Source: Pseudovirgaria hyperparasitica
Taxonomy: Eukaryota
DNA length: 64,000 bases
Assembly: GCA_010093815.1 (NCBI GenBank)
Contig: ML996593.1
Direction: 5' to 3' (one strand)
Shown: positions 21,586 through 64,000 of the stretch, piece after piece
Numbering within the stretch: position 1 is the stretch's first letter
How the letters are laid out: the number at the start of each line of letters is the position of its first letter
The notes under the pieces: generated by a model
Seen by the model: the letters and a program-made list of their open reading frames with translations, nothing else
What the model was told of the DNA's origin: nothing
The model's database searches: none
Made by a program: the position numbers and the translations under genes

Positions 21586-21599
21586 AGCTGTAGTTCTGG

Positions 21600-22100: not shown

Positions 22101-22169
22101 ATTGTAGGCCATAGGCCCACGATTCCCAATGGAGCTAATAGGCACTGGTGCCGGACCCTGAAGCTTTCC

Positions 22170-26745: not shown

Positions 26746-27039
26746 TTGAACCTTTGGTCATTTCCCAAAGGCACTTATACAACACGGCCTTGCCGGCCAC
26801 AACACAGTTTTATCTCCAACTTGTTTCAATTCGACCACACCCAGACATCCTCAACACCTTGCCTCCCCCTGCTGAGAACGCCATCTACTTGTGAGGCTTG
26901 TGAGAAATCTCCTCAATCGCACAGCACACCCACCGCTTTGGTCCCAGGATACTCTCAGCTGCCGCATAGGACGACCTCCTTGGGGGTTTCTCGTCTTCCA
27001 GACGAAGACCGCCCCCAGATCTTTTTCGAGCCACCATAA
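26746..27039 (+). promoter_or_regulatory. Candidate non-AUG regulatory uORF (uCC-type) in the ODC leader, ending IFFEPP*
   Basis: No ATG in 26577-27104. In-frame near-cognate starts are TTG 26746, TTG 26821, ACG 26878 and TTG 26938 (gctTTGg). The ORF ends Pro-Pro-stop. Confidence 0.6.
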
Positions 27040-27104
27040 CCAAGTGGCCACCATTTCAGACTTCTCGATCACAGACTCCTCTCCGCAGAGCTGATTCTCC
27101 TGGT

Positions 27105-28486
27105 ATGGCACCTTCTGCTATTCTCACTGAAGAATACACACCGTTTTCGATTACCAATCGTCGACTCTTCAACTCCAAGGATGTTGTGGCCGATGCTCGT
27201 CGTCACAATGCTCATCATGCCAAGCAGCTGATCGGAGACGCTCTTCGGGACCGGGTCAGCTCCATTGACGGAGACATCTGCGATGTGGGCGACGAGGACA
27301 CATTCTTTGTAGCTGATATGGGAGAGGTCTACCGCCAGCATATGCGATGGAAACTGAATCTACCAAGGGTCAAGCCTCACTACGGTAAGCGAATCCGACC
27401 TAATTCGTTCCACGCCCTGACAACGTGACAGCCGTCAAGTGTAACCCAGACCCAATGGTCCTACGTCTCCTTGCAGAGATGGGTACCGGCTTCGACTGCG
27501 CGTCCAAGGCTGAAATCGAGCAGGTCTTGAAGATGGGTGTTGACCCATCTCGCGTCATCTATGCCCAACCTTGCAAGACCAAGTCATATGTGCGATACGC
27601 TGCGCAGAATAATGTCAATCAAATGACGTTTGATAACGCAGATGAATTACATAAAATCAAGCAGCTCTTCCCGGAGGCCGAGCTGTATCTCCGTATTGCT
27701 ACCGATGATTCAGCCAGTTTGTGCCGGCTCAGCTTGAAGTTCGGCGCCACTCTGGACTCTGCAAACGAGCTTTTGCAACTTGCAAAAGGTCTAGACCTCA
27801 AAGTCGTTGGCGTCGCGTTTCACGTGGGATCTGGGGCTTCTGACCCTAACGCCTTTCTCAAGGCTGTTACAGATGCACGCTGGGTCTTTGACCAAGCCGA
27901 GGGTCACGGTTTCAACATGCACACTCTTGATGTTGGCGGTGGCTTTGTCGGTGAGACATTCGAGGCCATGGCTGCTGTGCTTTCGGGTGCACTCGACGCG
28001 TACTTCCCTCAACACGTTCGCATCATCGGCGAGCCTGGTCGATACTACGTGTCGGACGCTTTCACCATTGCGACACACGTCATCGCGCGCCGTACAGTCA
28101 GCGATAAGTCCCTTGACTCCAACTCCTACATGCTCTACCTTAACGACGGGGTATATGGGAACTTCTCCAGTATCATCTTTGATCACCAGCATCCAGTTCC
28201 AAAGATCTTGAAGAACGGCAATGTCTTCAAGCACGAGAGCACAGCAGGCAACGACGGTGTTGCACTGACTGAATACTCCATTTGGGGCCCCACTTGCGAC
28301 GGCATTGATTGCATAACATCCTCTTGCACTTTTCCGGAAGTGATTAACGTCGGTGACTGGCTCTACTTTGAAAGCATGGGTGCCTACACTAAATGTTCAG
28401 CTACACGCTTCAACGGTTTCACGGACAAGCATGATTGCATCTACGTGTCCAGCGAGCCTGGTGCGAGCGCACTTCTCGACCTGTAA
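27105..28486 (+). CDS. SPE1: Ornithine decarboxylase, 2 exons
   Basis: PHY|AVKCN (PLP lysine), FDCAS, HVGSG, DVGGG, EPGRY, WGPTCDG. Intron 27385-27431. Confidence 0.97.
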
Positions 28487-28972
28487 ATACCATAGAAAAC
28501 GAAAACCAGAGGATTTCAGGGTGGATCGTTTGCTTGGTTTATCTGCTTTGGAGAGGTAGTTCTTGAGTCCTCATTTAGACATGGCGCACTCCGTTTGCTG
28601 ATAGACAACATATGTACCTTCGCCATGTAATCATCATCATAAAAGTACCAAAAAATCTCGATGATCCGCTTTCGTTGCATCTGTTGTTGTTATTGTTTTT
28701 CTAAATACCATGTAAGTGCATGCAAGCTAAGCCAAGTATGCCCTACTTCCCACGTGTATAGATTAACCATACAAGTGTTAAGGACCCCAACCAATAGGCT
28801 AGCCCTGACGGAGCATTGACCACCCGTACCCGGCATCTGGGTTTGCGTCATCGGTGCATCCTTTCTGCGAGGGTGCACACTGGCAGTCGTGAGTATGTTT
28901 GTTCAGCTATCGGTCTTCAAGCTTAAAGACTGTAAACTACTTGAATAACACTGCTTGAACATCGTGAGAAAA

Positions 28973-29820
28973 ATGTCCAGTCAGTGGCCCTACAGCTTAT
29001 GCTCTCTTTCACACATGTTGACTGACCTGACCAATGTGTCTTAGACGCACCTGTAGACTACTGTCCGGCATATCCTCTTTACCTCAGCCGGGCACGCTCA
29101 CACACTCCTAGATGCGATCCTCGAGATCAACTCGAAATCCACTCAGCAACAGATTCGCGATGCTTATAAAAAGTATACCGTCTATATCTCATCTCCGAGG
29201 TCTATGCCCATAGCTAACACTCGCGAAGAGCAGCTCTCAAACATCATCCCGATCGTGTCCCTGAAGGCGATCCCCAGCGATCTACCCGTACCAAGCGATT
29301 TCAGCAAATAAACGACGCCTACTACACCCTCTCCGACCCGACTCGACGCCGAGACTACGACTCCGCACGCGCCTTCCACGGTTTCTCCTCTGCTCCTGAC
29401 CCCGCTGAGGATACTCCACAATCGCAACCAGGCGGTGGCTTCCCATGGTCCTCCTTCGGTTTCGGCAGTGGGCGCGGCACAGCTCCCAGCGAGACTGAAC
29501 ACGAGACATTCAGCAATGAGCAATTTGGTAACGCTTTCGAGGAGATGCTACACGAGCAGGGTATGGCAGATGGCGAGAGCCGACCAACGGGCAAGTTCTG
29601 GAGCGTAGTGGGTGGACTGAGTGGGGGTGCGATGGGTTTCATCATAGCAAATTTTCCTGGTGCGGTTGCGGGTGCTGTGGCTGGCAACAGGCTAGGCGCT
29701 GTACGGGATGCTCGGGGGAAGAGTGTATACGCAGTGTTTCAAGAGCTGCCGCAGGCGGATAAGGCACGGATGTTGAGTGATCTTGCAGCAAAGGTTTTTG
29801 CCCATGCGGTGGGGTCATAG
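28973..29820 (+). CDS. DnaJ-domain protein with C-terminal Gly-rich hydrophobic segment, 4 exons
   Basis: Spliced MSNAPVDYYAILEI..IRDAYKKAALKHHPDR..FQQINDAYYTLSD. Micro-exons of 7 and 18 nt. Confidence 0.88.
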
Positions 29821-30388
29821 ACGTATCCAGACCTTTCGTCTGACCCGATCCAACGGTATATTATGACCAAGCCATAAAGTAGAAGTGTTGCAAAAGGTCC
29901 GAAGAGCTTTTGTACTGTGAAAGAGATACCTGTATTGGTTTATGAATATTTCAGTGACGATTACATCTATAATGAGCAGATCACAAGCAGACGATCAACT
30001 TCTGTCATTAATTCTAGAGGATTTCCGATCAAAATGAGCCCACTTATAGTCGTGATCCGATCTCCTGCTTTCTGAACACACGGTGCACACATACACGCGG
30101 CCGCTTATGAATTTCGAAAAATCGTCGTGTCACATTAAGTCTCATAATAGTTTATTCGCCGCTAAATAGCGCAACGAGTTTGAGCCAAGCTACCAACAGC
30201 TACAATGCGAAACGAATCGGTCGCGACTATCCCAAACATCTTGTGTAGATCGCGCTTTCGCATGTCGATCTCCTTGCCTGTAAATTCGCGCTCACTTGCT
30301 TACTCGGCAATTTCGTGTTATCGTACCTATAGAGTCGTAGCCTCTTCGAGTTGTTCCTTAGCCGTGTATGACTTGCCCTTCCTACCCT

Positions 30389-30817
30389 TCACATAAACAT
30401 TCTCGCCACCTTGACTACACTCCCAAAATCTCCAAATCCGCCAAATACACCATCGCTCCGTCCCTCGTACCCTTGGCTGCTATAATATCCATTGTCATCC
30501 CTGAATCCTCTGGCGCCACCATTTCCTCTCAACGCTGCTGGCAGTTGAATTCCAAACTGTCGCGCAATTTGGTGCAATACACCACCGCTAATCAGGGGCA
30601 TGATGACCATAAAGAGAATTTTGATTGGGTGTCGTCGCGCATAATAATACAACTCCCGGATCAAATGTTTGAACTTGCGCAGAAGCATCTGTATATAGTT
30701 GTCGCGAGGACGACGCTTGTAGTACGATGAACCGGAGCGTGAGTGGGAGGAGAATGTGCTGCTGGCACGAGTGTAGGAGGGGCGCGAATGCGACGAGGAA
30801 GAATTGAACCAGCCCAT
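30389..30817 (-). CDS. Small conserved fungal hypothetical membrane protein
   Basis: 142-aa ATG-initiated ORF: MGWF, Ser-rich start, YYKRRPRD, hydrophobic ILFMVIMPLISGG, Gly-rich tail. Confidence 0.75.
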   Translation of the reverse strand: MGWFNSSSSHSRPSYTRASSTFSSHSRSGSSYYKRRPRDNYIQMLLRKFKHLIRELYYYARRHPIKILFMVIMPLISGGVLHQIARQFGIQLPAALRGNGGARGFRDDNGYYSSQGYEGRSDGVFGGFGDFGSVVKVARMFM

Positions 30818-31139
30818 TGACGCGGAGCGGTTGAAGGCAGACCAAAGTAATGGACTGGAGAGGTAACGAGGTCAGGGGTTCCGTTGTTAAATTGAACGTG
30901 AGGTATTAATATAGGAGTTCAAGTCGGAGCTGCGCTTCAGCCTTGTCGAAGCGTCTCGATTCTTCCACTAATGGTGAAGGCAAAGTCCGTTCTGTGTGTG
31001 TTTGTCGTTCCTGGTCTTCGACATCTCACTAGTCGACGAAGCGAAGCCTGAGGGTGTCGAGGCGGATAGTCAGCTTCTTCGCTCGGTGCTGGGTCCAGGG
31101 GTTATGATTAGCCGATAGGTAAACAGAGGGTTCATCTAT

Positions 31140-31788
31140 CGTTCTCCTAGAACCTAACGAGCTAGAACTAGTACACGCGTATTCTTACCCGTATCTTTCT
31201 ACCTTCTTTCTACTTTTATATCTAATTTAAGAAGATAAAAGATTTAAAAAGTAGATATAATAACTAATTAGCTATATATATATTCTTTTATAAGTTCTTT
31301 TTATTCTTATATAGTCTCTTTAGAGAGATTAAGAAGAATTTTTATATTTTTTATTAGATTAGATACTATAATAGACCTAGATAGACTACTCTAGTCTATC
31401 TATATTTTATAAGAAGTAAAAATACTAGATACTTCTCTTACTCTATTCTTATAGATTAGATTAGTATTAAGATTATTAATATATTAAGTTATATTAGTTA
31501 TAAAGTATACTATTTTCTATCTAAGTATCTAGTTAGTTATATTTATATATCTAACTAGTTTACTACTATCTATATTAATTATATATAATATATACTACTA
31601 CTATAGCTATAATAAGATATCTAAATTTAAGAAAATCTATTATTACGCTTAGTAGTCTTATATATAATACTTAGATAGATATAGATTTATATCTTTATAG
31701 ATACTATATTATAGTTAATCTACTACTAAACTAATATTAGAGAGTTTCTTAGTAGATATAATATACTTTATAGTCTTTTTAGAGTAAT
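31140..31788. mobile_element. Older, heavily RIP-mutated repeat (left part), host of the nested chromovirus
   Basis: Almost no CpA/TpG. The reverse complement of 31501-31615 matches 52555-52675. Confidence 0.7.
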
Positions 31789-32026
31789 TGTAATAAGTAA
31801 AGACGTAGGATAGTAGTCTAATAGTTTATAGAGAGACATAGAAATGTATTTATAGAGTAGTCTTACTCTTATACGAGGTTAATTCCTAACGAGCAGGAAT
31901 CGGTTTATACGGTCTACTTATATAGTAATCTCGCTTAACCCAGCTAACTCATTCTAGCTCTAGCCGCTACGTGGCTATATGGATTAGAATAGTCTATATA
32001 GGTCCGTTAGGGTTCCCGTCCTAATA
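31789..32026 (-). repeat. 3' LTR of chromovirus
   Basis: Begins TGTAA on the + strand. Matches 39527-39764, differing almost only by transitions. Confidence 0.95.
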
Positions 32027-32505
32027 ATATTCTTCTTCTTTTTATACTTCGCCCCAAAGCACTTAAGTATATATAATTCTAAGTCTCTATAATCTATTAT
32101 ATATCTATATATCCGTGACTAAGTTCCTATAATATTATAACTATCCTTAATATAGGTAAACTCGAGATTCTAGTTTACTTTTACTAGTTTATACACGCGC
32201 TTATCCCCTGCTTTATAGCTACTACCTAGAACACGTAATTACTACTTTAGTTAAGTATATATTTAGCTTCGCTCGCCTTTAATTTTATTCTCTAGTATAT
32301 CTATCTCGCTCTTAAGGTAAGTCGTTAATTCATATACTATCTTCCCTAGTTTAGGTTTAGAAGGGTCTATTATAGTCTATTCTTATTAGAACCGGTTCTA
32401 TATAACCTATTCGCGTTATTATAGTTACTAATTTAGCTTCGTTAATTACCGTTAAGGGTAGACGAATATTCCTTCCTTAGATCTCTAGCTAATATATATA
32501 TATAG

Positions 32506-33821
32506 ATGTCTAATACTAGTCCTATCTCTAAGTCTACCTCCTCCTCTCGTAAGACTCGCTCTAAAGGTATTATCTTCTCCCCGGCCACGCCGGCTAAGAA
32601 GCCTATCTATTACGGTGGCACGAAGGCGCGCTCTAAGTTAGAGAAGAGAGTAGCTAGGGCTACTACTACTACTTCTACCTCTACTACTAATATAGCCACT
32701 AGTCGCTCTAATCTAGGTAATTCTAGTACTAAATTTATGGATAAAGCGGTCGTAAGTTCTCCCCTTATTCTAACGCGCACGCCGTCTACTCTACCTCCTC
32801 TAGAGGATAAAGAAGATCTCGTTACGGACGATAATCGCGAGCCCTCGCGCTTACCCACACCGCCGCCTCGCCACTCTCCCTTCCGGTCTAATATAGACTA
32901 ATTTAGTCGCTCTAGGTCCTTTTAGGACCTTAATATTCGCTCTAAACCCTAGCCTACTAATAATAAGGTCTAGGTTACCGAGGATACTAAACGTAGTTAC
33001 GGTTTACGCTATAGGAAAACGGTAAACTACGGTTTAATATACTATAAGTATATTAAGGGCTATATAGCCGGCTCTAAGTATCTCTTTCGCTCTAACTCTA
33101 GTATTAGCTACTACTCTACTAACCGCGACGGGCCTATACGCCCTATCTTTACTCTACCTACCCGCTACCGCCGCTATACTATAACTAGTAAGACTTATCT
33201 ATAGGTAAGTATAATAGGCTATCTTAGTCTAGTATAATCTAAAGTTATCCGCGCTAATACATTCTTAGGTTTCTATATATATATAAGATATATATAATGA
33301 CCTTCGTGTCTATAAGACCCTCGGGGGTCCTTATAGCTATCTATCTACTATATAGAGGGAGTTTAGGGAGCGCTATAAGCTCTTTCTAGAGGTTATTAAA
33401 GTATAAGTTACGAACACGTTAATTATTTTTAACACCTATTAATATTTCTAGCCGCCGCGAGATCCCTAGCGCCTAGACTATCTATTCTAGAGAGTCTATC
33501 CTAGCTATAGAGACCGTAGAGAGGATTTACTCTATCCCCCCTTATCCGTCTCGCGCTACTAACGGATCTTATAAGAGGTCTACTATTTCTCCCTCTAAGT
33601 CGCCTCGTAAGAGGGTATATATTCCCTTCTAGATTATTCTAGATTATATTAGCTAACTTTAGACCTAGTCGCTACGCTCTAGCGCTTAAGGCTCTTCCCT
33701 CTAGGCTCTAACGGATCGGGTTATTACTCTAGAGGCTAAGGTCGTTATCCTCCGCTACTATATTATATAGTTAGAGAGGACTATACTAGAGGTTATAACG
33801 GATGATAAGATAGGGGAGTAG
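32506..33821 (+). pseudogene. RIP-mutated, intron-containing antisense gene carried by the chromovirus (~384 aa)
   Basis: Exons 32506-33204, 33269-33402, 33452-33614 and 33663-33821 join in frame (1155 nt). All internal stops are TAA/TAG, explicable as RIP of CAA/CAG/TGG. Confidence 0.75.
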
Positions 33822-36800
33822 CTCTATAGTTCTAGCTCTATATATTAGCTCTATATATTCTAGATCTACTATAGGTGGTACGCGCTAGCTCTATTTACCT
33901 AGCTTTTATCTATTTTAGTCCTTTTTTAGACCGTTTAGATACCTATCGGCTAGTTTCTAGTAATTTAATTCTTAACTTAATAATATTATATGTGCGCTCG
34001 CTTAGCTTATAACTATCGGTTTCTATATTCTAATTTTCCTTAAGTTACCTAAGTATGGGCACCGTATATTAATTAGTTTATCTCTATAAATTCTATTAGA
34101 GTATCTAAACTAGTAGCCTAGTAGTTATTAGTTCGGGTACTCTAACCTTTTATATTTCGTGTTAAGAGTTTAATTCTATAGTAGGGTACCTTTTTTAGGT
34201 TCTTAGTCCTATATTTTTCTCGTATATAATGGTCCATGTTAGTCCATTCTAGACTCTTCTATTATGGTATATCGCGTCGCGTTCCTAAAATAGTTACTTA
34301 CGCTTTCTTCGCGTCTAGTAACCGTATAATACTTAAATTATAGGGCTACCTTATAGAGTTTTCCTAGTGCGCGTCTAGATTTCCTAATTAAGTACTTTAT
34401 TCTCTACGGTATCCTTCTTCTTTTTATAACGACCGTAACGTCGCTATGTTTATATTAATAATATACTATTCTATATCTTTTACTTATACGCAGCTATTAT
34501 AGAACTTAAGATATATACCGCTAGTTCCTAGGTATCCTCGTCCTTAGTATAGTCCTTCTAACGGATTCTATATTTCTAAATACTATCTTTATTAATTCTA
34601 TGTTTAATAATATAGTCTACTTCGAACACGTCTAGTCTATCTTAGGGTATAATAGAGTATAACTATACGTTTATACGGTTATATATATTAGGTCGAAATC
34701 TTTCGAGTAGTAAGACGTGGAATATATTATAGATTCTTATATCGCTTTCTAAGTCGAGCTCGTAGGCTCTTATACTAATATAACGTTTAATTCGGAAGGG
34801 ACTAGCCATTTTATAATCGAGCTTCTTATTTACTCGTGATATTTATATATTATAAATGTTAAGAAGGACCTCGTCGCCCTCCTCGTACGTCTAATCCTTA
34901 GCTAACCTATTATAGTACTTCGTATATAAGTTATTTACTTATTAGATTATAGCGCGATAGTTACGTGCGGTTTTGAAGATTTTAATCGCTAATTTCTAAG
35001 CGTGGACGTTCATGTCTATTATTCGATTAAATTAGACTATATAAGGCTTAAAACCTATCCTTAGACTACGTCCGAGGTTCGCCTAGAAAGGTATAATACT
35101 AGTTATACTATAACGACTATTATTATATACGAACTCTACTATACTTAGTAGGGAGGCCTAGTCGTCCTACTCGAAATTATAGAATGCGCGTAGATAGCCT
35201 TCGAGCGTCTGGTTCTACCACTCTATCTAGCTATCTATCTAAGAATAAAATACTATAGATATGTTCCTATTTATACTTACTATTTTATAGAATAATATCT
35301 AGAATTTAGACGTGAAGGTACTTCCTCGGTCCGTAACGATTCTTTTTAGTATACTATGGACCTTAATAATCTCGTTCTAGAATACCTACGCTAGTTCTTT
35401 AGATATAATCATCTTCTATACTAGGATATACCTAGATATCTTTATAAGTCTATCTACGATAATAAGAATAGAATTATAACTTATTCTAAGTATCTTACTT
35501 AGAGATAAGTTAACTATAAAATCTATAGTAACGTCTTCCTATATAAAGAGGGGGACTAAAAGAGGCTATAAATTCCTATATAGCTTATGCCTAGGGGCCT
35601 TCGTTCTTTAATAAATCGGATAAGTAGCTATCTATTCTTTAATATACTTAGGTATATCTTCCTAAAAATAGTACTAACGAATTAAGCTTAGGGTACATAT
35701 ATACCTAAAGTATCCTACTAGATTAGCGTCATAGTATCGACTAACTACATTAAATCGCGCCTTACCCATTAGTATATAGTACTTTCTATTATAGTAAAGT
35801 AAGCTATCCACGAAGGTCTACTTATAGTCTACTTTAGTCCGTAATAACCTATCTTACTATATTTTACGTAACTTTAAAACTATTAGGTCTATCTTCTATA
35901 GATCCATAATTAACTAGGTAAGGTTAATTAGATATTCACGCTGGGCATTATCGCCCTTCCCGACAGCGCTAATAAATGGCCTACTAGGGACTTCGGTACC
36001 GCGTCTTTGGTTACTAGCTTCGGTCTTAGAGATTTAATTACCGGTATCGACGTTAGTATCTCGCTAATTACCTAATAACTTAAAATCTAACCTTGTCCTC
36101 GAGAGTTAGGCCTATAGCTACTCTAGGACTCTATAGCTACTATAATCCTAGGCGCCTTCTTTATAGTTAGATCTTCTTAATATTCTATTAGCTAGGTTTA
36201 TACTTCTAGATCGATAGTAGATTATAAAGTGAAAGTTCGTAAGCTACTTAGCCTATTAAATCTATTAACGGTTTAAAACTATTATACTTATAAACCCCTT
36301 TAAGTTATAGTAATTAGTTAGTAACTCGATATTATATATAGTACCTTTAAGATAATATCGCTACTATTTAAACGACTCTACTATTACTAGTAGCTCTTGG
36401 TTATAGATAGTATATCTAGTCTTAATATCGACTATTTTACGCGAGAAGAACGCAACTAGATACTATTAGACCTTTTTAGACTTAGTTAGTCTAGACTAGG
36501 AGAGAATATCTAAGATTATAAATTCTAACGCGTTAGTTTTAACGTGGATAGGTTTAGTCGGGTCGAAGTGCACTAGTAATAGAGTAGTTATAAATGCCTC
36601 TTTGATTTTCTCGAAGGAGGCCCTTTCGCCTTCTAATAATTCTATAGACTGCGATTTAATATTATACTATTTCTATCTACCGTGGACCGTAATAGATGAA
36701 TCTATAGTAGTAGTATACGCGTTAAGTGGTACTACTAGCCAGGAGAAGTACTTAATAAATTTTCAGTAGTAATTAGCAAATCTAATAAAGACACGTATAT

Positions 36801-39526
36801 CTCGAACCGATTTTAGTTTAGGCTAGTCCACGATAGTAGTAACCCTATCCCTTTCTATAGTTATACCTTAATTAGTAATAACGAAGCTAAGGAAGTTAAC
36901 GTGGTCCTAGTGGAACTTATATTTAGATAGCTTAATATATAGCTTATGTTTTTCTAGCCTATCTAGGACTACGCGTACGTGCTAGATATATTCTTCTTTA
37001 TTATTAGAGAAGATAAGAATATTATCAAGGTATATAATGCACGTCATATCAAGTAGGCCTACTAGCGCGTTATTAATATACGCTTAGAAGGTCCCTAGCG
37101 CGTTAGTTAGTCTAAAAGGGACTACTATATACTTAAAGTATCTATAACGGGTCCTAAACGCCGTTTTCCACTTATCGCCCTTCTTAATATATAGGCGGTA
37201 GTAGGTGTCGTATAGATCGAGCTTAGTAAAGATCTTTACGCGCCCTAGTCTATTAATAGACTTAGAGATAAGAGGTAGTAGGTAATAATTCTTCCGTATA
37301 ATATTATTTAGGCTACGGTAGTCGATATATAGACGGAGACTTCTATTCTTCTTCTTTATAAAGAGGATTAGAGCTCCGGCTAGGGATATACTAGACCTAA
37401 TCTATCCTCGTATAAGGTTCTTTTCGATATATTCTCGGAGGACCTATAGCTTAGATTCTAATAGAGGGTAGATGGGTCTATATGGGGGTTATTAACCGTT
37501 CTTAAGATTAATAATAAGATTAGTAGGTTGGTATTAAGGTAATTCGGACGAGTCGATCGCTAACGCGATATATTAGTATATTTTATACTAATATAGTAGG
37601 TTTTCGTCTACTTTAATACTAAGCTCTCTATTTTAAGTAAATAAGAGGATATAGATAGTAGAGATTACCTTTTCGTAGTCCTTCTAGAATTATTTATCAT
37701 CGACTAGCTATACTAGGTTCTATTATAGTGGGTGCATGCGCCAGCTAGCTGTTTTCTAGATGAAGTCTAGTTTCGGGTTATATTTTTCGAGCTATAGTAT
37801 ACTAAGAATCATGTCGAAGGGGCTATCTACCACGATAAAGGTTAAGTAGTAGGGTTTCCACTTCCCCCCGCTATTCTAGATACTATATTTAATAGTATAG
37901 GTACCCTATAATTTAATAGGACTATCGATACTATGGAAGGTAGCACCTATTAGTACTTAAATATTAATATTAAGTTCTCGTGCTCGTTAAGTCGATATAA
38001 CGTTAGTAGCTAAACCGCTATTAAGTATTATAGTCTAATGTTATCCACGGGGGACCTCGATAGGCCTAGCCTATAGTTTAATATACTAGTTGGCTAGTTA
38101 TCCCTCTATTTTAGTTACGCCTATAAGTCACGAGGGTTTCTTATAGATAGTTAGTTTTTTATATTATATACCGGGTAGTTAGGCGCGATGTATCCTAGCT
38201 ACTAGCACTTATAGTATATAACTAACTTAGTATCTATATTAGTATTTAGTGGTTTCCTAGAGCGGTACTCGGGTACTATATGGCCTATCCTACCATAAGT
38301 ATAGTAGGTAACTTTAGGTCGTTTATATAAGTCGTTTCTCGCGTCTCGATATATTAACTAGTAGGATAATCCGTGGTACGGGCCTCGTCCTCTCGAGTTC
38401 GTGGAGTAGTAGTATCTACGAGGTATTCCGCGCGATCTATTACTAAACTAGTCCTCTTTAGATGATTTCATATTAGATCAGATTAGTAGAGATAGTTATA
38501 CGCCTATACGGCGTTAGTTATTTATTATACGCTAGTATTATTCTATAAGATTCGCGAGTACCTAAAGGTTAGTAGAGATAGACGTTATAAGGTTAATGCG
38601 TTCCTTTACGCTCGGATTAAGGGACCTTTTAAAGTTATTATATTATTAAACCATGCGATCTTCCTTAGCTTCTCTCTAGAGAGGTCGGAGGTATTTAAGG
38701 AGTTATAACGGGGATTATCTTTCTCGCTATTAAGTCTTAAAGATATGGCTCTAAGCCTATTCGCGTCGCTCGGCTCTATCGCCAAAGTATTAAAGAAGGA
38801 ATTTAGTAAACGTGTTCTAGTTATATATATCCTTAGGGTGTTCGATTTAATATACTATCTAACGTTTAGATAGCGTTAGGTCTAGGTAGTTCTATATAAA
38901 CCTAATCTTATTACTATCGTTCGTGAATAGGTAGAAGAATCAGCTATACTAGTAAGCCTATTTATAAAAGCTCTTCCGGGTTTTACCGTCAAAGTAAGGT
39001 GGTTTCTTAGGCCGAGGTAACTAGGATAGTAATAGACTTAGTTAGACTATTTCGGCTTAAGTTAGTCTATATTAGTATAGGTTAGTTACTACTAGTACTA
39101 AAGCGCGTAGTGCGGCTTCGAGTCTAGCGGTTCGTTCTTATACTTCGTTAAGTTCGCGAAGTTACTATTTAAGCTAAGCCTAACGCTACCTCTCCGTGTA
39201 TAGCCTAGTATATATATTATTATAAGGCGTGGTTAACGTTAGTCGGTTCTAATGAATTAGTTCGTTAACGTTAATAGGGTCTGGTCTTATAGTAAGGATA
39301 GGTCTAGTATGGTATAAACTAGACCGCGATAGAGTATGATAGACTCTAGTTATTAGTACGATAGCTTATAGGGTATACTTATTAGTAGAGGTGGTCGTAG
39401 GGAGACTATTCTCCTCGTTTAGATTTAGGGAGAGTCTCTCATGGGAGGTCGTGCCACGGGTATTATAGCGTATAGTAGGAGCTATCTCTATAAGCTACCG
39501 TCGTACTATATAGAGAGGAATTAAAA

Positions 39527-39764
39527 TATAATAAGTAAAGACGTAGGATAGTAGTCTAATAGTTTATAGAGAGATATAGAAATATATCTATAGAGTAGTC
39601 TTACTCTTATACGAGGTTAATTCCTAACGAGTAGGAATTGGTTTATACGGTCTACTTATATAGTAACCTTACTTAACCTAGCTAACTCATCCTAGCTCTA
39701 GCCGCTACGTGGCTATATGGATTAGAATGGTCTATATAGGTCCGTTAGGGTTCCCGTTCTAATA
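39527..39764 (-). repeat. 5' LTR of chromovirus
   Basis: 238-bp direct repeat of 31789-32026, followed by TSD GTAAT. Confidence 0.95.
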
Positions 39765-45095: not shown

Positions 45096-45190
<95 letters not shown>

Positions 45191-45380
45191 NNNNNNNNNN
45201 NNNNNNNNNNNNNNNNNNNNNNNNNNNNNNNNNNNNNNNNNNNNNNNNNNNNNNNNNNNNNNNNNNNNNNNNNNNNNNNNNNNNNNNNNNNNNNNNNNNN
45301 NNNNNNNNNNNNNNNNNNNNNNNNNNNNNNNNNNNNNNNNNNNNNNNNNNNNNNNNNNNNNNNNNNNNNNNNNNNNNNNN

Positions 45381-45475
<95 letters not shown>

Positions 45476-51479: not shown

Positions 51480-53745
51480 GATTACTTATATGAAATGTAC
51501 TATATTATTTTAGTATATATCTTATAATAAAAATATATACTATTATAAGAAGATTTTATATATATATATATAGAATTAATAAAAGAAGTACTAGACTTAG
51601 AATAATAATCTTAATACCTTTATTAATAAATTATACTAAGTATACTTATTACTAATATATATATATAAACTATTAACTATATAATATTACTAATATATAA
51701 AGATACTATATATATACTTAAACTCTACTTAGAGATAAGAGTATAGACTATCTATCTATAAATACTAATATATAAGCTCTATATTTATTAGTTAAGAATA
51801 TTTCTTAAATAATAACTATAGTAGTCTAGATACTAATATACTCTAGTTTCTACTTATTAGAAATTTAATAAAGACTAGACTAGATCTATCTATTAAGAGT
51901 AAACCCTAGATATACTTTATACTAGTATACTTATATCTATACTATTCTTATTCTACTAAGTAAGACTAAGTAGTTCTCTTTTTAATAATATATACTCTAC
52001 TCTATATCTTAAGAGAGCTAAGTAGATTTCTACTTTCTCTTTTATTAAACTTACTTAGTAGATTCTATTAATACTCTTATATCTATATATATATTATATT
52101 TCTATAATATTAAGTTTAATCTTATTTTACTCTCTAGAAGTTCTACTATAGACTCTAGAAATAATATATAGAGTAATATTAGTAGTAAACTAGACTAAGT
52201 TCTATATCTAAATATTACTCTATAAGAAGCTAAATAAGCTCTCTATAATCTAATATAATAGTAACTAGTACTCAAGTAGAAGATTTCTATCTTAGAAAAC
52301 TAAGTAGAAAATCTATAAAATCTATTAGACTCTATAACTAATAATCTACTAAGATCTTTTATTATAGTAATCTTCTCTCTCTTATAGACTAACTAAGAAC
52401 TCTTAGAATCTAGAGACTAGAAGCTATCTATCTAGAATAGTAAAGTAGCTATCTTCTAAGACTTTCTTCTTTAGTTATATAGCTTCTATAAGATATAATT
52501 AGTATTAAAACTAAAGCTATCTCTAGAATACTACTAGAATACTATATATAATACTCTTATTATAGCTATAGTAGTAGTATATATTATATATAATTAATAT
52601 AGATAGTAGTAAACTAGTTAGCTATATAAATAGAACTAACTAGATATATAGATAGCGACTAGTTTATATACTTTAAATACTAAGTTCTCTTTACTAGACT
52701 ATCTTAGTTAATATAATAATATTAGAATAATTATAAGTTTATATAATCTTCTCTCTACTATACTATCTATACTAACTATTTTATATTAGACTAGTAAAAT
52801 ATCCTTCTTCTAGTATAAGATATAAGTAGAATAGACTTATTATATTACTAAAAACTTAGCTCTCTAGAGCTTAAGAATACTCTATTTACTAGTTATAAGA
52901 TTATATATAGAATAAATAAGATATCTATAACTCTATTACTTCTATAAACTACTATTTAACTAAAAACTTTTTCTCTTAGTTAATACTAGATACTAGTAAT
53001 CTAATACCTTCTATTACTATTTCTAACTATCTATAATAATAGCTTATATTACTACTAGAGAACTTAGTTCTTCTAGAGTATTAACTATTTAGTTATAGAT
53101 AAGTTAATTAATAGATATTTAGAAATCTACTATTACTTAAGATAATACTTAATTATCTTATTACTAACTATCTACTACTCTCTATACTAGAATATTCTTT
53201 ATAAAGTAGAAGACTAACTATTAAGAATTTTCTACTATAGTAGTTAATAAATTATCTAGTATTATAAGAGATATATAACTTATTTCTAAATAATCTATTA
53301 ATTTAAGCTTAGTATCTATTAACTACTAGACTCTCTAGAGTATTCTTAAGCTTATTAGACTTAGTTAATTATATAGTAAGCTCTAGTATAGAAGCTACTA
53401 TATCTAACTATTCTAAATATACTAGTACTTTAGTAGAATATACTATACTATATTAGATAGATATAGATACTAGTAATAGTAGTATACTAGCTAGAGCTCT
53501 AATAACTAATAATAGAGACTTATAGTAAGATAGTAAGCTATAATTATATCTATAATCTAGTAGACTCTTACTTAGTAGGTAGGTATTTTATAAGATAATA
53601 ACTAAAACCTAATAGATAGTAGTAAAAATCTACTATTTAATAATAATAAAGATAGTTAAGAGTTTAGAATATAAGAAATTAGATTCTTCTAGTCTAACTT
53701 AGATTATAGCTTTAGAGATAGAGATATTACTTTTACTAGTTAGAC

Positions 53746-53778
<33 letters not shown>

Positions 53779-56700
53779 TCTTCTTTAACTAGATTAAAGA
53801 CGCTACTATAGCTAGAGAAACTAAGACTATTAAGTTAAAAATCTTCTAGTATCTATAAGAATATATCCTTAAGTAGTTTATATTAGAATTATCTAATCTT
53901 ATAAAGAAAGTACTCTATTACTTATCTAGTTTAGATACCTAGACTATAGTCTTAATTAAGTAGTTTAAGTAGCTATTATCTAATACTCTATTATCTCTTA
54001 TAATATAAAGATATACTCTTTAAGAGATCTACTTCTAAACTAATATTACTTTATATATATATATTATAGCTTATAACTATAGTACTATATAACTATTAGA
54101 CCCTTCTAGCTAAAATACTTAGATATTTATATAGAATAGTATTAATATTCTTCTTTACTAGGGTCTATCTCTACTAATAGAATCTATATCTCTAGTCTAG
54201 TTTATATAAACTCTATAAGTAAAATATAAAGAATAGTACTAACTTATCTACTATTATCTTAGTAGTATATAGTATAGTACTTCTAGTTAATTTACTTAAT
54301 AAGAAAGAGAAGATAGTTAATATAATAGCTCTTATTACTATAACTTACCTTAACTATTTAATAACTCTTAAGACTAGAGCTAATCTAATAGCTATTATTT
54401 TATAGCTAATTAGTCTAATTAATATCCTAACTTATACTAGTCTTACTCTTCTTAGTAGTTCTAATAGAGACTAGAAGGTTTAGAGAATAGTAGTTAAAAG
54501 ATATTAGCTAATATATATTAGCTACTAGCTATAATAGATAGTTCTATAGATTATCTAACCGGTCCTAGACTAACTAATAAGCCCTATACTAGCTAGTCTC
54601 GGTCTCTTAGTAATAATAGATAATTTACTTAAGTACTATAACTATTCTACTAGGCGTGTAATATCTAGAAAGAATTATATAATCTAGATATTAAAGCTAC
54701 TTACTATATAGAGATTAAAGAAGCTTTCTTCTATCTTAGACTAACTAATATAGATACTATAGAACTAGTATAGTTTAGTAATAAAATAGATCTTACTAGT
54801 CTTAACCTACTATCTAGTAATATTAATAAGAGTCTATCTTTATAATTTATAGTATACTAAGTAACTAATATATATCTAGTATACTAGATCTAGTATAATA
54901 TTTATAATAAGATATTTCTATTATAAAGAAAGCTATTTAAGTACCTTAAGAATAGAAAGTACCTTAAGATAGCTATAAAGACTAAAGTTTCTCTATATAG
55001 TTATATAGTTCTAAAGTTAAATATTATATATTATAATATTTAAGAGAATATAGTACTATTATTAGTTAATAGTCTACTAGATACTAGCTAAGTATATAAA
55101 GAATTATACTATATCTAAGTTAAGGCCTTACTTAGTCTTAATAGTCTAGTTAAATATATCTATCTAGATATAGAGAGTATAGTAATACTAATTAACTAAG
55201 CTTTTCTTAAGTAATAGAACCCTACTATCTAAGTACTTATTTATCTAGCTATTTCTATTTAGAGAGTAGAGGGAGTTAAGTCTATAAAGCTAACTAAATT
55301 TATAATTATTATACTATTTCTTCTAGACTAAACGTCTAATAGTTTAACTACTATAACTACTAAAGTATTATATAAGATATATATTCTTAACTATCTATAA
55401 GTAGATCTTCTTCTTAGAATAGATATTATAGTATCTTAGAAGATAGATATCTATATAAGTATATATATAATAACTATTAGTAAATATAGTGGGATTACTA
55501 TACTAATCTTTACTACTACTATTTAACTAGTAGTATACTAGAGAGTAACCATTTTATAGTATACTATTCTCTAGCTATAAATACTTATACTAGTTCTAAT
55601 TATAATCTATTACTAGTATAAGTTAGCTATAGAAGATTATATATTCCTATAGAATCTTATAAAAAGATATAAGTTCCCGCTAGCGTCCTTACTAAAACCA
55701 CGACTAAAAAACTACCTTTTCCCTTATAATAAATTAACCACGCCCTTAATTAAAGATCTATTCCGATAAATCATGCTCCTAGCTACGCTAAGTAATTCTA
55801 TATACTTTTTATAACTTATAGACGCGGTATTATAGACGAGTTCTAGTTATAAGCCTCTAGTATCATGTTTAGTAGTAGCTTGAAAATTTGTACGTCTTAG
55901 CCGTGGATTTTCCAGCGTACCTTAGTGCCTTAGTACCTTAAATTGAGACTATACGTAGTCTACCAGCCGTAGGCCACCCTAGTTTACTCTAATATATATA
56001 AGTATAAGACTTAGTTAAGATAGAGATATCTATATATATCTTACTAACTAAAATATAGTATATATATTTATTATAAATTATAGATTTAGATTAGTATATA
56101 TAAATAAGAATATAAGACTTAGTATATTAATAGATAAAATAGATACTCTCTATATATTTTAGACTAAAGTAGTTTCTTTAGATATTATAGAGAGATTATC
56201 CATAAAGCTTACTTAGCTTAATAAAGTTAAATAGATAGATATATTTTATATAAAAATTTATACTAAAGATAAAGTAACTATCTAAAGGTTTAATAATATT
56301 ATTTAAAGTTATACTAGCTTATTTTATAATACTAGACTTATAAATATTCTAGAGAAAGACTAGATATAAATTCTACTAGTAAGTAACTAGAAAACGGCTA
56401 GTATAAAGCTAAGCTACTATATCTATCTATTAGAGATAAGTAGTAAGACTATTATTAATAAGATATATAATAAGCTCTATATATAAGGTTATATAGAATA
56501 TCTAATATAATAAAGACTATTTAGTTTTCTAATATTTATTATATATACTATAGTAAAGTTACTTATCTAAATATTATATAAGAATACTAGTTAGATAGCT
56601 AGAGATATAAGAGACCTAAATAAGATTAGTATTAAGAACTTCTATCTATTACTACTATAGAGTAATATTATCTAATATATAGCTAGAAAGAAGTTTATAT

Positions 56701-59350
56701 CTATTATTAATATAGCTAGTTTCTTCTACTAGTAGCTAGTTACTAAGAAAGACTATTATAAACTAATATTTATATTATACTAAGGCTAGAAGTAGTTAAA
56801 TATTATGCTTATAGATTTCTATAACTCTCTACTATATATATAGAGATAGATTAATAAGATCTTATATAAAGCTAGATATAAGGCGTTTACTATAGTATAT
56901 ATTAATAATATTTCTATATTTAGTAAGAAACTTAATAGGTATCTTAACTATCTATAGTAGATATTCTCTACTCTATAGATAAAAAACCTAATACTTAAAG
57001 GTAAAAAGTATTACTTAGAATATCTATCTATTACTCTACTTATCTAGAAGGTTAATACTTATAGACTCTCTACTATAGCTAAGAAATTAGTAGCTATATA
57101 TAATCTCTAGTATTCTAAAATACTTAATAAGCTTAAGTACTACCTTAGACTAACTAGATAGTTATAGTAATATATACTATACTCTACTTAACTTACCTAG
57201 AATCTATAGATAGAGAAAATATATCTTCTTAAGAAAGTATCTTTAGTAGACTATATATATATATAGTTCATTAATAAATAAATAAAAATCACTTAAATAG
57301 ACTAGCTACTAGTATTATAGAAGGGTATTTAGACTACATTTATAGATAAGACTAAGCTTATCTACTATAATCTTAAAACGATATCTTTATATAGATATTA
57401 ATATATTAAAGTATAGATTTAGAGTATTTATCTATTATATTAGAGAAGAAGTAATTAATATTATAAAGATTAGATAATCTAATATTAAATCTATTCTATA
57501 TCTTAGTAAAGAACTCTCTTCTACTAAGTTATACTACTAGCTAATAGAGCTAGAAGTAGTAGTAGTTATATAAATAATATATTAAATATACTATATAGTT
57601 AATAGTTTAGATAAACTAATAACTATTATTACTAACTATATAGCTATACTAAGTATTATTTAGTAGATAGTACTTATAAGCTTATTAGTTAATAAGCTAA
57701 ATCTCTAACTAGTATAGGTCTTATAGTATCTATTATAGTTTAACCTAGAGCTTAGATATAGACTAGGTAAGAAGTATATAGTATCTAATACTCTCTCTTA
57801 GCTCTATTAGATCTATAAAAGAGTCTAGCTAAGAGACTTAGATATTCTTAAGGAGCTCTTAGTATTTAATATTATAAGTTAAGATTAATCTAAAATTTAT
57901 AAAGTAGCTAGCGGACGCCTATAATAATAATAAGTACTAGATAAGTATTAAAGCTATAGTACTAGACTAGAATAATAATATTACCTAGCTAATTTCTTTT
58001 TAAGTTACTAATAGTATAATTTATTATATTAATTAGCTTAATAGATAATATTAGATCTATATACTAAAATTACTTAATAGAGATATTTTTACTTAATTCT
58101 ATAATAAAAGCACTTATATACGTTTTTTCTAAGTATATAATTAAATTCATATAGACTACTTTATTTATTAGCTTATAAAGCATCTAAAGTACTATATTTA
58201 GTACTATTCTATCTATAAAACTTACTAGATATAAAGACACGCTCTATATAGTAAATTAAAGCTAGTCTAGTTACTACTAATACTATTTTACATAGTTATA
58301 ATAGACTTTATTATTAGACTACTAATATAGAATAGATTTAATATACTACTTACTATAATAGATTAGTTTACTAAATAAATCTATCTTATTCTAGACTAGA
58401 ATAACTAGACTACTATATAATAGATAACTATATTTAGAAGAAGTATACTACTAGAATAGAGAGTTCTAGCTATAATTATTTATAATAGAGACTAAAAGTT
58501 CCTATTATTATTTTAGAAGGGAATTTTTAAGGGTATTAGTACTAAAATCCTAGTATTAACTACTTATTATAAGTAGAGTAATAGTTAAAGTAAATATATA
58601 AATTAAATAGTAGAGATTACTCTATATTTTCTTATTTTAATATTACTACCTATAGACTAGATAATCTATATTCTATTAGTCTAGTAGATTATAAAGAATT
58701 TAATAAATATCTTAATATAAAAATCTCTAAATAAGATAGTATATAGCTTCTAACTATCTAAGAATACTCTATTTAAGGGAACTAATTTAACTAAAGTAAA
58801 TAATTATATCTAAAAGTATAATATAAACTAGAAGAAGACGTTAGACGCGCTAGTATTCGCCTAGATATATATAAAGGAGCGTTTTAATAGGCGCTATATA
58901 TCTCTACTAGACCTTGCTTCCGGTAACTAGGTCTATATTTAACTATATAAAGGGTATAAGATTCTAGGCACTTATTATAAGCTTAGCTAATAGTAAGTTA
59001 GACTAGTATCTATTAAATATATAGTAGACCGTTAAGCGTATAAACTAGAGCTACTAGAAATATAGAAAAGATATCTAGTAATATCTATTAAGTAGTTAGA
59101 ACTATTTCTAAAAGAGCTTAACTACTTTAACTATAAAGAAAATATATATCTACTTAAAATTATAAATAAGTAGATAGTAATAGCTATCTATAATTAGTAC
59201 TATATTTTAATTAGATATAATTATAAACTAACTATTAAATACTAGATAATAGTATATAGTAAGGGTCTAGAATTTAGTTAGTAGATTTAGTAAAGTATAC
59301 TTCTATTAGACTTAGTTAAGGAATATAACCTTAGATAAGCTTATAGAAAT
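51480..59350 (+). mobile_element. Heavily RIP-mutated repeat block containing a + strand Ty3/Gypsy pol (a different family)
   Basis: De-RIPped motifs: protease end DLLLG.D ~55405, RT MPMGF.NS ~56805 and YI(D>N)(D>N)ISIFS ~56900, integrase MDFI.GLP ~58300. LTR ends were not resolved. Confidence 0.75.
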
Positions 59351-61107
59351 AGTCTACTAGAAGTCTAGCTAGGTTAATAACTACTTAAAGTTACTATATC
59401 TATCTATCTCTAGCTATTATAGATAGAGAGCCGTTAATATCTATTATAATAAGTAGTATTATAATATATATCTCTATCTGGTATTTTAAGGATATATAAC
59501 TATAAAGTATTTTCTTATATTATTACTTAAAGATTAGTACTAGATCTAAATCTATTAACTAAAAATAATTACTATAGTTAAGCTAACTATATAGTCTACT
59601 ATATATAATTACTAATCTATAAATATTCTATAATATTAACTAATTATTATATATAACTAGCTTTATTCTTATAAGACCTAGTATATTAATTTAGTAGATA
59701 TATAATAGTTCTACTTAATCTAAACTAACTAATATCCTTCTATACCTATAACTAAAGATAGATAAAAAATACTACTATTAGTCTATAGTAAAAATTTAGA
59801 CTTAAGTAAATTTTAATCTAGCTATATAACTATTATATACGGCTCTATATAATATAATAGCTAACTAGGTAGATTCTAATAATTTTCTAGACTTATTAAA
59901 AGCTTTTCTACTAATCCTTCTAGAATATATAGTAGTAGAATATTCTTTATTATTAGCTCTATCTATATAGATCTCTAGTAATAGACTACTATTAGATAAA
60001 TTCTCTATAACTAAATAACGGTACCTATTAAAATATAATTTATAGCTATTTTATATAGATTATTCTATTAATATTATAGAGATCTAAATAACTTAGCTAC
60101 TAGTAAATATCTAGCTATCTAACTAAGTAAAGTTACTAATAGTTATAGTAATAGAATAATAAATTATAAAGAAAGGTAAGATTAGTATCTACTAGCTAGC
60201 TATCTTCTTAAAAGAAGAATAGTTTTAGAATAGATATTTACTATATAGAGTCTCTAGCGTTTTAAATAATAAAGTTATAATTATATTTAATTAATTTATA
60301 CTTAGTAGAGTAGTAATATTACTACTATATTATTAGTAGATTCTAGAGAAGACTTATTCTAAGCCCTAGGTAATTAAGAATAAACTACTTATAGTAAATA
60401 AAACCGACTATTATAATTAGACGGTACCCTTAGATATTAATCTAGTATATAGATATAAAGATAATAATAGTAGTATCTTAGCTAAGTAACTATTAAAGAT
60501 TATAAGTACTATATAACTAACTATAAAGAGTATAGTAGGCGATCTAATCTTAGTCTAATCTTAATAATTAGGTTATATATATACTATATTACTTATATTA
60601 ATAACTACTACTAATAATTTAGACTTTAGCTTACTATATAGTTAGTTAAGTAGATAGTAAATAAACATAGGTAGCTTAGTACTAAATATTAGTAATCTAT
60701 TACTTTTTATAGCTAAATTAAGTTATATAATTCATTTTAAAACTAGTATATAAAGATTTAATCTAATTATAATTCTATAGAAAGATTAGCTAGATAATAA
60801 GAAAGTAACTATATTAGATATCTATATATATAATCTTAATATAGTTAAAAGAATTATTAACTAATTAATCTAGACTAATATCTATCTTACTAATATCTAC
60901 TAATAGCTATATAATATAACCTTATTAATTAAGGTAAATATATTTAACTAGAGAACTATAGTAGCTATCTAGATGTAATTTTTAATATCTATTCTAATAG
61001 CTACTAGAAATAATCTATATATAATACTTCTTAACTAAGCTAAAGCTCTATATAAACTTATTAGTAATAAAGGTATTAACCTAGTTAAGAATAGATATAA
61101 GTAATCT

Positions 61108-61683
61108 TATTAGGTACGTGGCCTACTAGTTAATTATACATGTATATAGTAGTTATATATAAGTAGTATACTCTACTCTTAAAGTAGTAGCTTTAACATT
61201 CGGTTCTTTTAGTATAGTTAGTTAGTATATAAAGTCTATCTTATTATATAATCTTAAAGCTACTATAGGGTTATAGGTTTAACTCTTGGTCTAGTTAACT
61301 ATTATTAAATTTTATATAATTCCGTTTAGCTTACTACGTTATATATACTTCTAGATATATATACTAGATAATATATATTATTATAATAAGTTAGTATATA
61401 TAGTACTAGAGACGGTATTACGAGTATTAATTAGGTATATATATAGTTTATACTAGGCCTATTACGGCTAGTTTAGTTTATCTTTTATAAGGTAATATAT
61501 CTATAATATATAAGGGCACGCGTCTTTAAAAAGGGGAGATATTATTAGGTACATGGCCTACTAGTTAATTATATATATATATAGTAGTTATATATAAGTA
61601 GTATACTCTACCCTTAAAGTAGTAGCTTTAAGATTTAGTCCTTTTAGTATAGTTAGTTAGTATATAGAGTCTATCTTCTTATA
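61108..61683 (+). mobile_element. TRIM-like non-autonomous LTR retroelement (576 bp)
   Basis: 141-bp LTRs at 61108-61248 and 61543-61683; AATCT TSD at 61103-61107 and 61684-61688; PPT aaaaaggggagatat at 61528-61542; 294-bp non-coding interior. Confidence 0.9.
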
Positions 61684-62054
61684 AATCTATATTTAAGTAT
61701 ACTATTTTAATAACTAAAGACTCCTTTAAAGTTAAAAGTAACCTAGATATATATATTATATTATTCTAGGATTTTTAGTAGAAAGTAAATACTACTAAAA
61801 AGATATAGAGCCTTAATAGAGTTATTATAGAAAGTCTAGTTTTTAAAAAACTATCTATTAAGAAGGACTCTTATATTATCTAATCTAAGCTTATAAAGAA
61901 ATAACTTATTATCTTATTAGATAAGAAATTAATTAATAGTAATTTTACTATAGAATAGCCGTATCTAGTTCTAAAGATAACCTTAACTATCTTAAAAATA
62001 ATATCCCGAATATTTTAAAGGAAGTCTAAGTAGTCTAATTTAGTTAGCCGTCTA

Positions 62055-64000
62055 TATAAGAATTATAGACGTAGAATAGTAGTCTAATAGATTATAGAAG
62101 AATTTAGAAATATATTTAAAAGGGTAGTCTACTCTTATAATAAGGTTAATTTCTAAAGAGTAGAAGTTAAGTATATATAGTCTACTTATATAGTACTATC
62201 GCTTAATCTAGCTAACTTAATCTAGATCTATCTATTATAGAACTATACTAGACTATAGTAGTCTAGTTAAGTCTATTCTAGTATTAGTTCTAATAATATT
62301 CTTCTTCTTTTTATACTTTACTCTAAAGTACTTAACTATATATAAATCTATAATTCTAGAAGTATTATATTTATATATATATCTAATTAAACCTATATAA
62401 TATTATTAATAGCCTTTATATTAGTAAACTTAAAACTCTAGTTTACTTTTATTAACTTATATATACGCTTATCTCTTACTTTCTAGCTATTACCTTAGAG
62501 ATAGCTCTATAGATTATCTAACTACTATATTAACTAAGCTTATATTTAGTTCTCTTATTCTAAATTTTCTTCTTTAGTATATCTATCTTACTCTTAAGAT
62601 AAGTTATTAATTTATATACTATCTCCTTTAGTTTAGGTCTATTTAGATCTAGAGTAGTCTATTCTTATTAGAGCTAGTTCTATATAATCTATTCGCGTTA
62701 TTATAGTTACTAATTTAGCTTTCTTAATCGCCCTTAAGACTAAATAAGTATTCTATTCTTAGATCTCTAGCTAATATATATATATAGATACCTAATACTA
62801 GTTCTATTTCTAAGTCTATCTTCTTCTCTTATAAGACTTACTCTAAAGAGATTATCTCTACTTTAGCTATACTAGCTAAAAAGTCTACTTATTATAGTAG
62901 TATAAAGGCGTACTCTAAGTTAGAGAAGAAGGTAGATAAGACTACTACTACTATTACTACTAAGGTAGCTACTAGTTACTCTAATCTAGATAAACCTAGT
63001 ACTAGTAGTATAGAAGAAGTAGTTATAAAGCCTACTTATATCTACTCGCGCTATCTATCTATTCTATCTTCTCTAGAGAATAAAGAAGATCTTATTATAG
63101 ATAATAATTAAGAGTTTACGCCCTTACCGCCCCGCTCTAGATACTATTTCTCTTTTTAGTCTAATATAGACTAGTTTAGTTACTCTAGGCCCTTTTAGAA
63201 TCTTACTATTTATTCTAAGTCTAGCCCTTCTAATAATAAGATCTAGATTACTAAGAATACTAAATATAATTATAGTTTATACTATAGGAAAATAGTAAAC
63301 TATAGTTTAATATACTTTAAGTATATTAAGACTTATATAACTAGCTCTAAGTATCTTTTCTACTCTAACTCTAGTATTAGCTACTACTCTACTAATTATA
63401 ATAGATTTATATATCTAATCTTTAAACTATCTACTTACTACTACTACTATACTATCCTTAGTAAAGTTTATCTTTAGATTAGTCTATTAGACTATTTTAG
63501 TCTAGGGTAATCTAAAGTTATCTATACTAATATATTTTTAGATTTCTATTTATATATAAGATATATATAATAATCTTTATATCTATAAGACTCTTAGTAG
63601 TTCTAGTAGTTATCTAGCTTCTATATATAGGGAGTTTAGAGAGTACTATAAGCTCTTTCTAGAGATTATTAAAGTATAAGTTTAGAAACTATTAATTATA
63701 ATTAACCTTAGCTTATAATTTTTAGTTACTATAAGATTTCTAGTACTTAGACTATCTATTCTAGAGAATTAGTTTTAGCTACTAAGACTATAGAAGAGAT
63801 TTATAGTATTTCTTTCTATCTAACTTATACTACTAATAGATCTTATAAGAGATCTACTAGCTCTCTCTCTAAGTTACCTTATAAGAGAGTATATATTCTA
63901 TTCTAGATTATTCTAGATTATATTAGCTAACTTTAGATCTAGTTACTCTACTCTAGTATATAGTTCTCTTTCTACTAGACTCTAGTTAATTAGATAGCTA
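62055..64000 (-). mobile_element. Second, diverged and more heavily RIPped copy of the chromovirus (3' LTR, PPT, antisense gene; truncated by the window end)
   Basis: 62055-62295 aligns to the LTR; 62296-64000 is colinear with ~32027-33730. Confidence 0.9.

Follow-up and report, generated by a model that had tools for sequence, protein, structure and literature searches.

How does an LTR retrotransposon begin reverse transcription when it encodes nothing and shows no tRNA-type PBS behind its 5′ LTR? The question is raised by a miniature element of 576 bp (61108-61683) in a 64-kb stretch of ascomycete DNA – the whole of which is called the window here – where the sequence just past the 5′ LTR is complementary to a segment of that same LTR.

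The element lies in the AT-rich block of the window (bases 51,500-64,000, 22% G+C); the gene-rich part (bases 1-30,000) has ~50% G+C. The dinucleotide pattern of the block is a RIP signature, with a TpA/ApT index of 1.67 (genic part 0.80) and a (CpA+TpG)/(ApC+GpT) index of 0.04 (genic part 1.18), and the corresponding values for the copy of the miniature element itself are 1.76 and 0.11. Clusters retrieved with an ornithine decarboxylase exon of the window belong most often to the Ascomycota, and scans of the full 64 kb returned neither a tRNA gene nor an Rfam match. Two (ATT)n arrays, both perfect and with 31.7 units (45096-45190 and 45381-45475), the second preceded by N letters at 45379-45380, are probably one long microsatellite split by an assembly gap.

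Read on the plus strand, the element opens with a 5′ LTR of 141 nt (61108-61248), which starts with TATTAGG and ends with CTTATTATA. Inside it are found TATATAAG (61156-61163), the 11-mer TATA motif TATATAAGTAG that contains it (61156-61166, LTR positions 49-59) and the 5′ copy of a putative self-primer segment (61185-61200), the proposed start of R. The internal domain (61249-61542) is non-coding and 294 nt long: a single T at 61249 separates the LTR from the putative PBS of 16 nt (61250-61265), and the polypurine tract AAAAAGGGGAGA (61528-61539) stops 3 nt before the 3′ LTR. The latter (61543-61683) again measures 141 nt and holds an intact 16-nt primer segment at 61620-61635. A direct-repeat search of the window returned these LTRs, before their exact delimiting, as 145-nt repeats with 92% identity; as delimited, they are identical at 131 of 141 positions, eight of the ten differences being transitions. 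The TA ends of the LTR would fit a RIP-mutated TG...CA.

The limits of the element are set by its flanks. On both sides stands the 5-bp target-site duplication AATCT (61103-61107 on the left, 61684-61688 on the right), and the unoccupied form of the site is found among contigs of four public runs, X1 to X4, that were placed on 60600-62200 at a likeness of at least 80%. Some contigs from X1 and X2 reach 61107 and then run straight on into the first 13 bases past 61688, while others from these runs begin at 61684 and are preceded by 20 bases equal, save for one difference, to 61084-61103. Such joined-flank contigs, with a single AATCT, are the uninterrupted target site, and they presumably derive from paralogous copies of the repeat that was hit by the insertion. 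Together with the identical AATCT pair, they define a single 576-bp insertion with a 5-bp duplication. The same two observations place the end of the 5′ LTR at 61248, so that the complement indeed begins one base after the LTR, as the initial annotation had proposed.

In size and layout the element comes close to a TRIM, defined in the available text of PMC6934838 as an element below 1 kb with repeats of 100-250 bp, a short non-coding interior and a PBS complementary to a tRNA. It is shorter than 1 kb, has LTRs within the range of ~100-250 bp, a target duplication and a polypurine tract, and does not code for protein. A six-frame Pfam search of 51-64 kb gave no match within it – the sole match belonged to an unrelated Nop25 gene near 51.2 kb – and it encodes no chromodomain Ty3/gypsy polyprotein, or anything else, in this search; stringent BLAST found no second copy of its internal domain in the window. 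As to the PBS, the end of the LTR and its vicinity contain no TGG, and the site found there complements the element's own LTR; the element is therefore classed as a TRIM-type variant and not as a textbook TRIM.

The complementarity itself was recovered as first described: 61250-61266 matches the reverse complement of the LTR at 16 of 17 positions for the 3′ copy (61619-61635) and at 15 of 17 for the 5′ copy (61184-61200). Its perfect core comprises 16 nt (61250-61265 against 61620-61635). The segment is present in all three LTR copies of the window: the third, on the minus strand at ~3.6 kb, has the identical 16-mer, and the 5′ LTR carries one mismatch, a G>C change at 61198 that breaks one pair and leaves a perfect run of 12 nt. 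When the comparison is widened by 7 nt on each side, just two of the 14 added positions match, and these sharp ends of the complement argue against an inverted fragment of the LTR. In this orientation the LTR segment pairs with its 3′ end adjacent to U5. The segment had also been described as starting ~20 nt after TATATAAG, which agrees with the computed distances of 21 nt from the end of that motif and 28-29 nt from its start; seen from the start of the TATA motif, the partner of the PBS spans ~29-44 nt downstream. Just after the PBS, AGGGT (61267-61271) is complementary to ACCCT in the 3′ LTR (61610-61614, upstream of the primer segment; ACTCT in the 5′ LTR), and with this pairing, across a 4-nt bulge, the stem would reach 21 bp, provided that transcription begins upstream of the assumed start.

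How often would AT-rich sequence produce such a match? Among 12,400 positions of the AT-rich block, none has a reverse-complement match of at least 16 nt within the preceding 145 nt, and 45 have one of at least 12 nt. Mock PBS windows taken from both strands of the block and compared with the 3′ LTR reach at least 16 nt in 16 of 23,754 cases, which we attribute to a TA-repeat stretch in the LTR. The sole place that is relevant to the hypothesis is the base after the LTR; the PBS there was read letter by letter in one copy.

The window also contains a candidate for the family that helps the element to move. Gy1 (31789-39764, minus strand, 7,976 nt) is a RIP-mutated full-length chromovirus with LTRs of 238 nt each (39764-39527 and 32026-31789), identical at 225 of 238 positions, with all 13 differences being transitions; it is flanked on both sides by the target duplication ATTAC and has a polypurine tract at 32043-32031. 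Translation in six frames, with X written for each stop, places its domains in a single minus-strand frame (~37.4 to 34.5 kb) that is interrupted by stop codons alone: RVT_1 (E 1.6e-20), RT_RNaseH_2 (4.8e-15) and SH3_Tf2-1 (7e-10), along with weak matches to Chromo (0.002, below the cut-off) and Integrase_H2C2 (0.029). Some 2.4 kb between the chromodomain and the polypurine tract have no assigned domain, a stretch shared with a second copy. That second copy, Gy2, is more heavily RIP-mutated, and its 3′ part (62059-64000, minus strand) runs off the end of the window; its 3′ LTR lies ~375 bp from the miniature element.

Gy1, too, has no TGG-type PBS after its 5′ LTR. Instead, 2 nt past this LTR stands TTAATTCCT (39516-39524, minus strand), whose 9 nt are the reverse complement of positions 140-148 of the Gy1 LTR (39625-39617). 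Mock PBSs from the interior of Gy1 find a 9-nt match anywhere in its LTR in 202 of 7,480 windows; a match of at least 9 nt that ends at LTR positions 146-150 occurs in three of the 7,480.

The two elements have more than this arrangement in common. Their LTRs share the first seven bases, TATTAGG, preceded in both by ATAT after the polypurine tract, and an end of the form GTCT.T.CTTATTA(C/T)A (13 of 15 positions match by eye); the TATA 11-mer is identical, and target duplications measure 5 bp in both. In Gy1 the 11-mer starts at LTR position 103 and the 3′ end of the PBS partner falls at position 148, a distance of 45 nt; in the miniature element the positions are 49 and 93, and the distance is 44 nt. 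Cross-pairing gives no complement in either direction, whether the PBS of Gy1 is compared with the miniature LTR or the reverse. That two related LTR architectures each have a private fitting pair at the same place is what a functional pairing would lead one to expect. Elsewhere the likeness ends: global alignment of the LTRs is informative just at their ends and the TATA motif, and the internal domains show no similarity above shuffles, 15-85 of 200 of which score as well in the plain and the purine/pyrimidine alphabets. A Gy1-type chromovirus may mobilise the miniature element, a relation for which the LTR ends and the layout are the evidence.

Minimum-energy folding of 61184-61275 predicts a primer–PBS stem and an inner stem in which the end of U5 pairs with upstream U5 sequence (-19.4 kcal/mol, z -2.3, 4 of 200 shuffles as stable); the counterpart in Gy1 is predicted to form a 9-bp stem followed by a stem of ~15 bp that closes U5 (-22.6 kcal/mol, z -1.6, 16 of 200 shuffles as stable), with both z-scores modest and computed on RIP-mutated sequence. 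These predicted folds resemble part of the three-duplex 'pretzel' of Tf1 relatives, as set out in the available text of bioRxiv 10.1101/2022.12.06.519325. A stem so dominant in the predictions would also suit a different role – a conserved inverted repeat that serves packaging, dimerisation or stability, with priming achieved by other means – and the additional 5-nt ACCCT/AGGGT complement would carry the stem past the presumed transcription start on its upstream side. We nevertheless consider this explanation unlikely: in both elements the 3′ arm of the stem starts 1-2 nt past the LTR, which is the defining place of a PBS, no alternative PBS candidate exists there, and exactly such a layout is described as a self-primer in the portions of the literature available.

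Other copies of the family, which appears to be multi-copy and abundant, bear on whether the PBS might be a product of RIP and so conceal a former tRNA complement. At a likeness of at least 80%, 1,441 records in X1 and 711 in X2 fall on 60600-62200. X1 shows 147 kinds of changed position, and 127 of these are A>G or T>C, which means that the other copies bear G or C where the window copy has A or T and that the latter has been mutated by RIP. Contigs identical to the window have a depth of ~183-192; summed contig depth, which is not a copy number and was used solely as a sign of many copies, amounts to 33,000-112,000 over the LTRs and 13,000-32,000 over most of the internal domain, the top values (~155,000-171,000 at 62058-62165) being those of the Gy2 LTR. 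Two degenerate-pattern scans of metagenome contigs, one for the internal domain and one for the LTR, gave no match each.

The second sample (X3 and X4) provides contigs of 402 and 339 nt that run from 61248 through the internal domain at ~85% likeness, the longer one going 59 nt into the 3′ LTR; spanning the element from PBS to 3′ LTR, they show that the same arrangement of LTR and internal domain exists elsewhere in a less mutated form. These un-mutated contigs have at least 36 differences from the window at 61274-61523 and, among the differences listed, none at 61253-61273, which suggests that the PBS, as judged from 61253 onward on these differences, is original sequence. Many of the differences in 61274-61523 are adjacent T>C and A>G changes, that is, TA in the window against CG in the other copies; both strands of former CpG sites have accordingly been mutated, a pattern that indicates either very heavy RIP or a preference that includes CpG. 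In the main contig of this sample, unrelated sequence consisting of a PstI site and 3 nt stands directly before 61248, where the end of the LTR is expected; the un-mutated LTR end that one would expect is found in another of its contigs, of low depth. The PstI form could represent a truncated copy, a chimera of the assembly or a subfamily whose LTR is different.

A further line comes from the third LTR copy of the window (3568-3700, minus strand), which lies in the gene-rich part and is ~89% identical over 112-125 nt. Here CpA and TpG survive next to the primer segment, and since this copy keeps the 16-mer beside them, the TpA steps in the segment are probably original and not products of RIP. 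The copy (region 3545-3700) sits in an AT-rich islet between genes, and ~17 nt past it there is a polypurine-like stretch that resembles the junction of polypurine tract and LTR in the miniature element; it may thus be a collapsed element and not a clean solo LTR.

Conventional priming by a tRNA or a tRNA fragment, with a PBS obscured by RIP and an LTR match that is incidental, draws its strength from the state of the window copy, which is heavily RIP-mutated (TpA/ApT 1.76) and in which a TGG could have decayed to TAA; the comparison with un-mutated copies, moreover, covers the PBS from 61253 on, past the first bases behind the LTR (61249-61252). It has to contend, however, with the rarity of a perfect 16-nt self-complement at exactly the place of the PBS, with the second-sample contigs, in which the differences listed include none at 61253-61273 and which suggest that the PBS is original, and with the related chromovirus Gy1, which likewise lacks a TGG start and has a self-complement of its own. 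Taken together, these points make conventional priming quite improbable. That there is no transposed unit at all – only a pair of adjacent solo LTRs, tandem repetition with a period of 435 bp or a chance similarity of low-complexity, AT-rich sequence – can be dismissed as highly improbable: permissive BLAST did extend the LTR matches outward into flanking sequence (66-74% identity), but identity beyond the LTRs falls to an AT-rich background of ~58-60%, stringent BLAST yields the LTR three times and the internal domain once, the identical duplication and the uninterrupted-site contigs amount to one 576-bp insertion, and contigs of the second sample cross the PBS, the internal domain and the 3′ LTR. 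A 435-bp tandem array was also rejected with Tandem Repeats Finder, which reports no such array, in agreement with stringent BLAST.

The best reading, and in our judgement a likely one, is that the element would use self-priming of the Tf1 type, a trait it has in common with a chromovirus helper or has taken over from one. The initial annotation had proposed tRNA-independent self-priming of a non-autonomous element, and the sequence features found here – no TGG-type PBS, a 16-nt complement and a parallel layout in Gy1 – fit that proposal. Transcription would begin in the LTR, ~29 nt downstream of where the TATA motif starts, and the first ~16 nt of the RNA would fold back and pair with the complementary site, which lies one base past U5. 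The primer–PBS duplex would then be cut by an RNase H provided in trans, and the 3′ end so freed would prime minus-strand DNA synthesis as in Tf1, with no need for a tRNA. The proteins would probably come from a chromovirus like Gy1, which is present in the same window. More tentatively, and on balance somewhat less likely than not, the 16-nt primer/PBS pair that the miniature element, highly amplified, carries as its own, unlike the 9 nt of the probable helper, could make up a portable cis-module that a parasite is free to re-code, with the helper's RNase H reading the shape and the position of the duplex and not its sequence. In sum, the locus is best explained as an ascomycete LTR retrotransposon of TRIM type (576 bp), non-coding and present in many copies, of which this one has been inactivated by RIP. 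The most fitting name for it is a self-priming element of TRIM type that derives from, or is parasitic on, a lineage of fungal chromoviruses.

As a mechanism, self-priming is already known. It has been shown for Tf1 and proposed for Tj1 (in the available text of PMC4600332), is described as common to Tf1/sushi chromoviruses (bioRxiv 10.1101/2022.12.06.519325 and PMC6317226, in the parts available) and is also stated for fungal Tf1/sushi elements in the accessible portions of PMC6934838 and PMC4600332. Tf1 and Tf2 of Schizosaccharomyces pombe, Tj1, Tosmo and Tcry are, according to what is available of PMC4600332 and bioRxiv 10.1101/2022.12.06.519325, like the miniature element in having no tRNA-type PBS; they also have an adjacent duplex that closes U5, which in the miniature element is a prediction from folding. 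Going by the same partial sources, the Tf1/sushi group further resembles it in the polypurine tract before the 3′ LTR and in LTRs that end in CA.

The self-complement at the place of the PBS, which here is perfect and lies 1 nt after the LTR, is a Tf1/sushi feature as well, with a duplex of 16 nt in the miniature element as compared with 11 nt in Tf1. Tf1/sushi elements are autonomous, whereas the miniature element has no genes; and cleavage and priming have been established by experiment in Tf1, whereas the miniature element is known from its sequence. Nearer in host are the ascomycete elements for which self-priming has been proposed, which, compared by description, belong to the same host group and likewise lack a conventional PBS; Gy1 has the domain set expected of them. 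These earlier elements are full-size or decayed full-size copies, however, and not miniature ones.

On the other side stand the TRIMs of plants, ants, cestodes and bivalves, which, as far as the available descriptions go, are like the miniature element in size and repeats, in a short non-coding interior between PBS and polypurine tract, in a 5-bp duplication, and in being numerous and dependent on a helper. They differ from it in the PBS, which is complementary to a tRNA by the definition given in the available text of PMC6934838 and to the element's own LTR here; the study of bivalve TRIMs raises self-priming as a possibility that it could not confirm. Predicted self-priming elements of plants are listed in additional files 1 and 5 of PMC6317226, as its available text indicates, and might include non-autonomous ones, while the term 'self-priming' in bioRxiv 10.1101/2022.10.17.512609 refers to siRNA hairpins.

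No TRIM, LARD or other non-autonomous LTR element with self-priming turned up in the literature searched, outside of which lay Repbase-type libraries and subscription journals. The novelty claimed by the initial annotation was overrated, inasmuch as self-priming of fungal Tf1/sushi elements had already been reported. A non-autonomous element is, furthermore, expected to keep the cis signals of its helper, so that a specialist would not be greatly surprised by this one. The main new result is the presence in the same window of Gy1, with a parallel layout and a private complement.

Gy1 and the miniature element thereby form a natural compensatory-change comparison that favours self-priming in filamentous fungi, where it has hitherto been inferred mostly from single elements, and less RIP-mutated copies of the family could serve in experiments. 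Annotation pipelines that seek PBSs complementary to tRNAs would miss elements of this kind. A self-primed TRIM would also widen the definition of TRIMs, which now rests on a tRNA-type PBS; and if the primer/PBS pair is indeed a portable module, no self-primed non-autonomous LTR retrotransposon would have been described before the miniature element.
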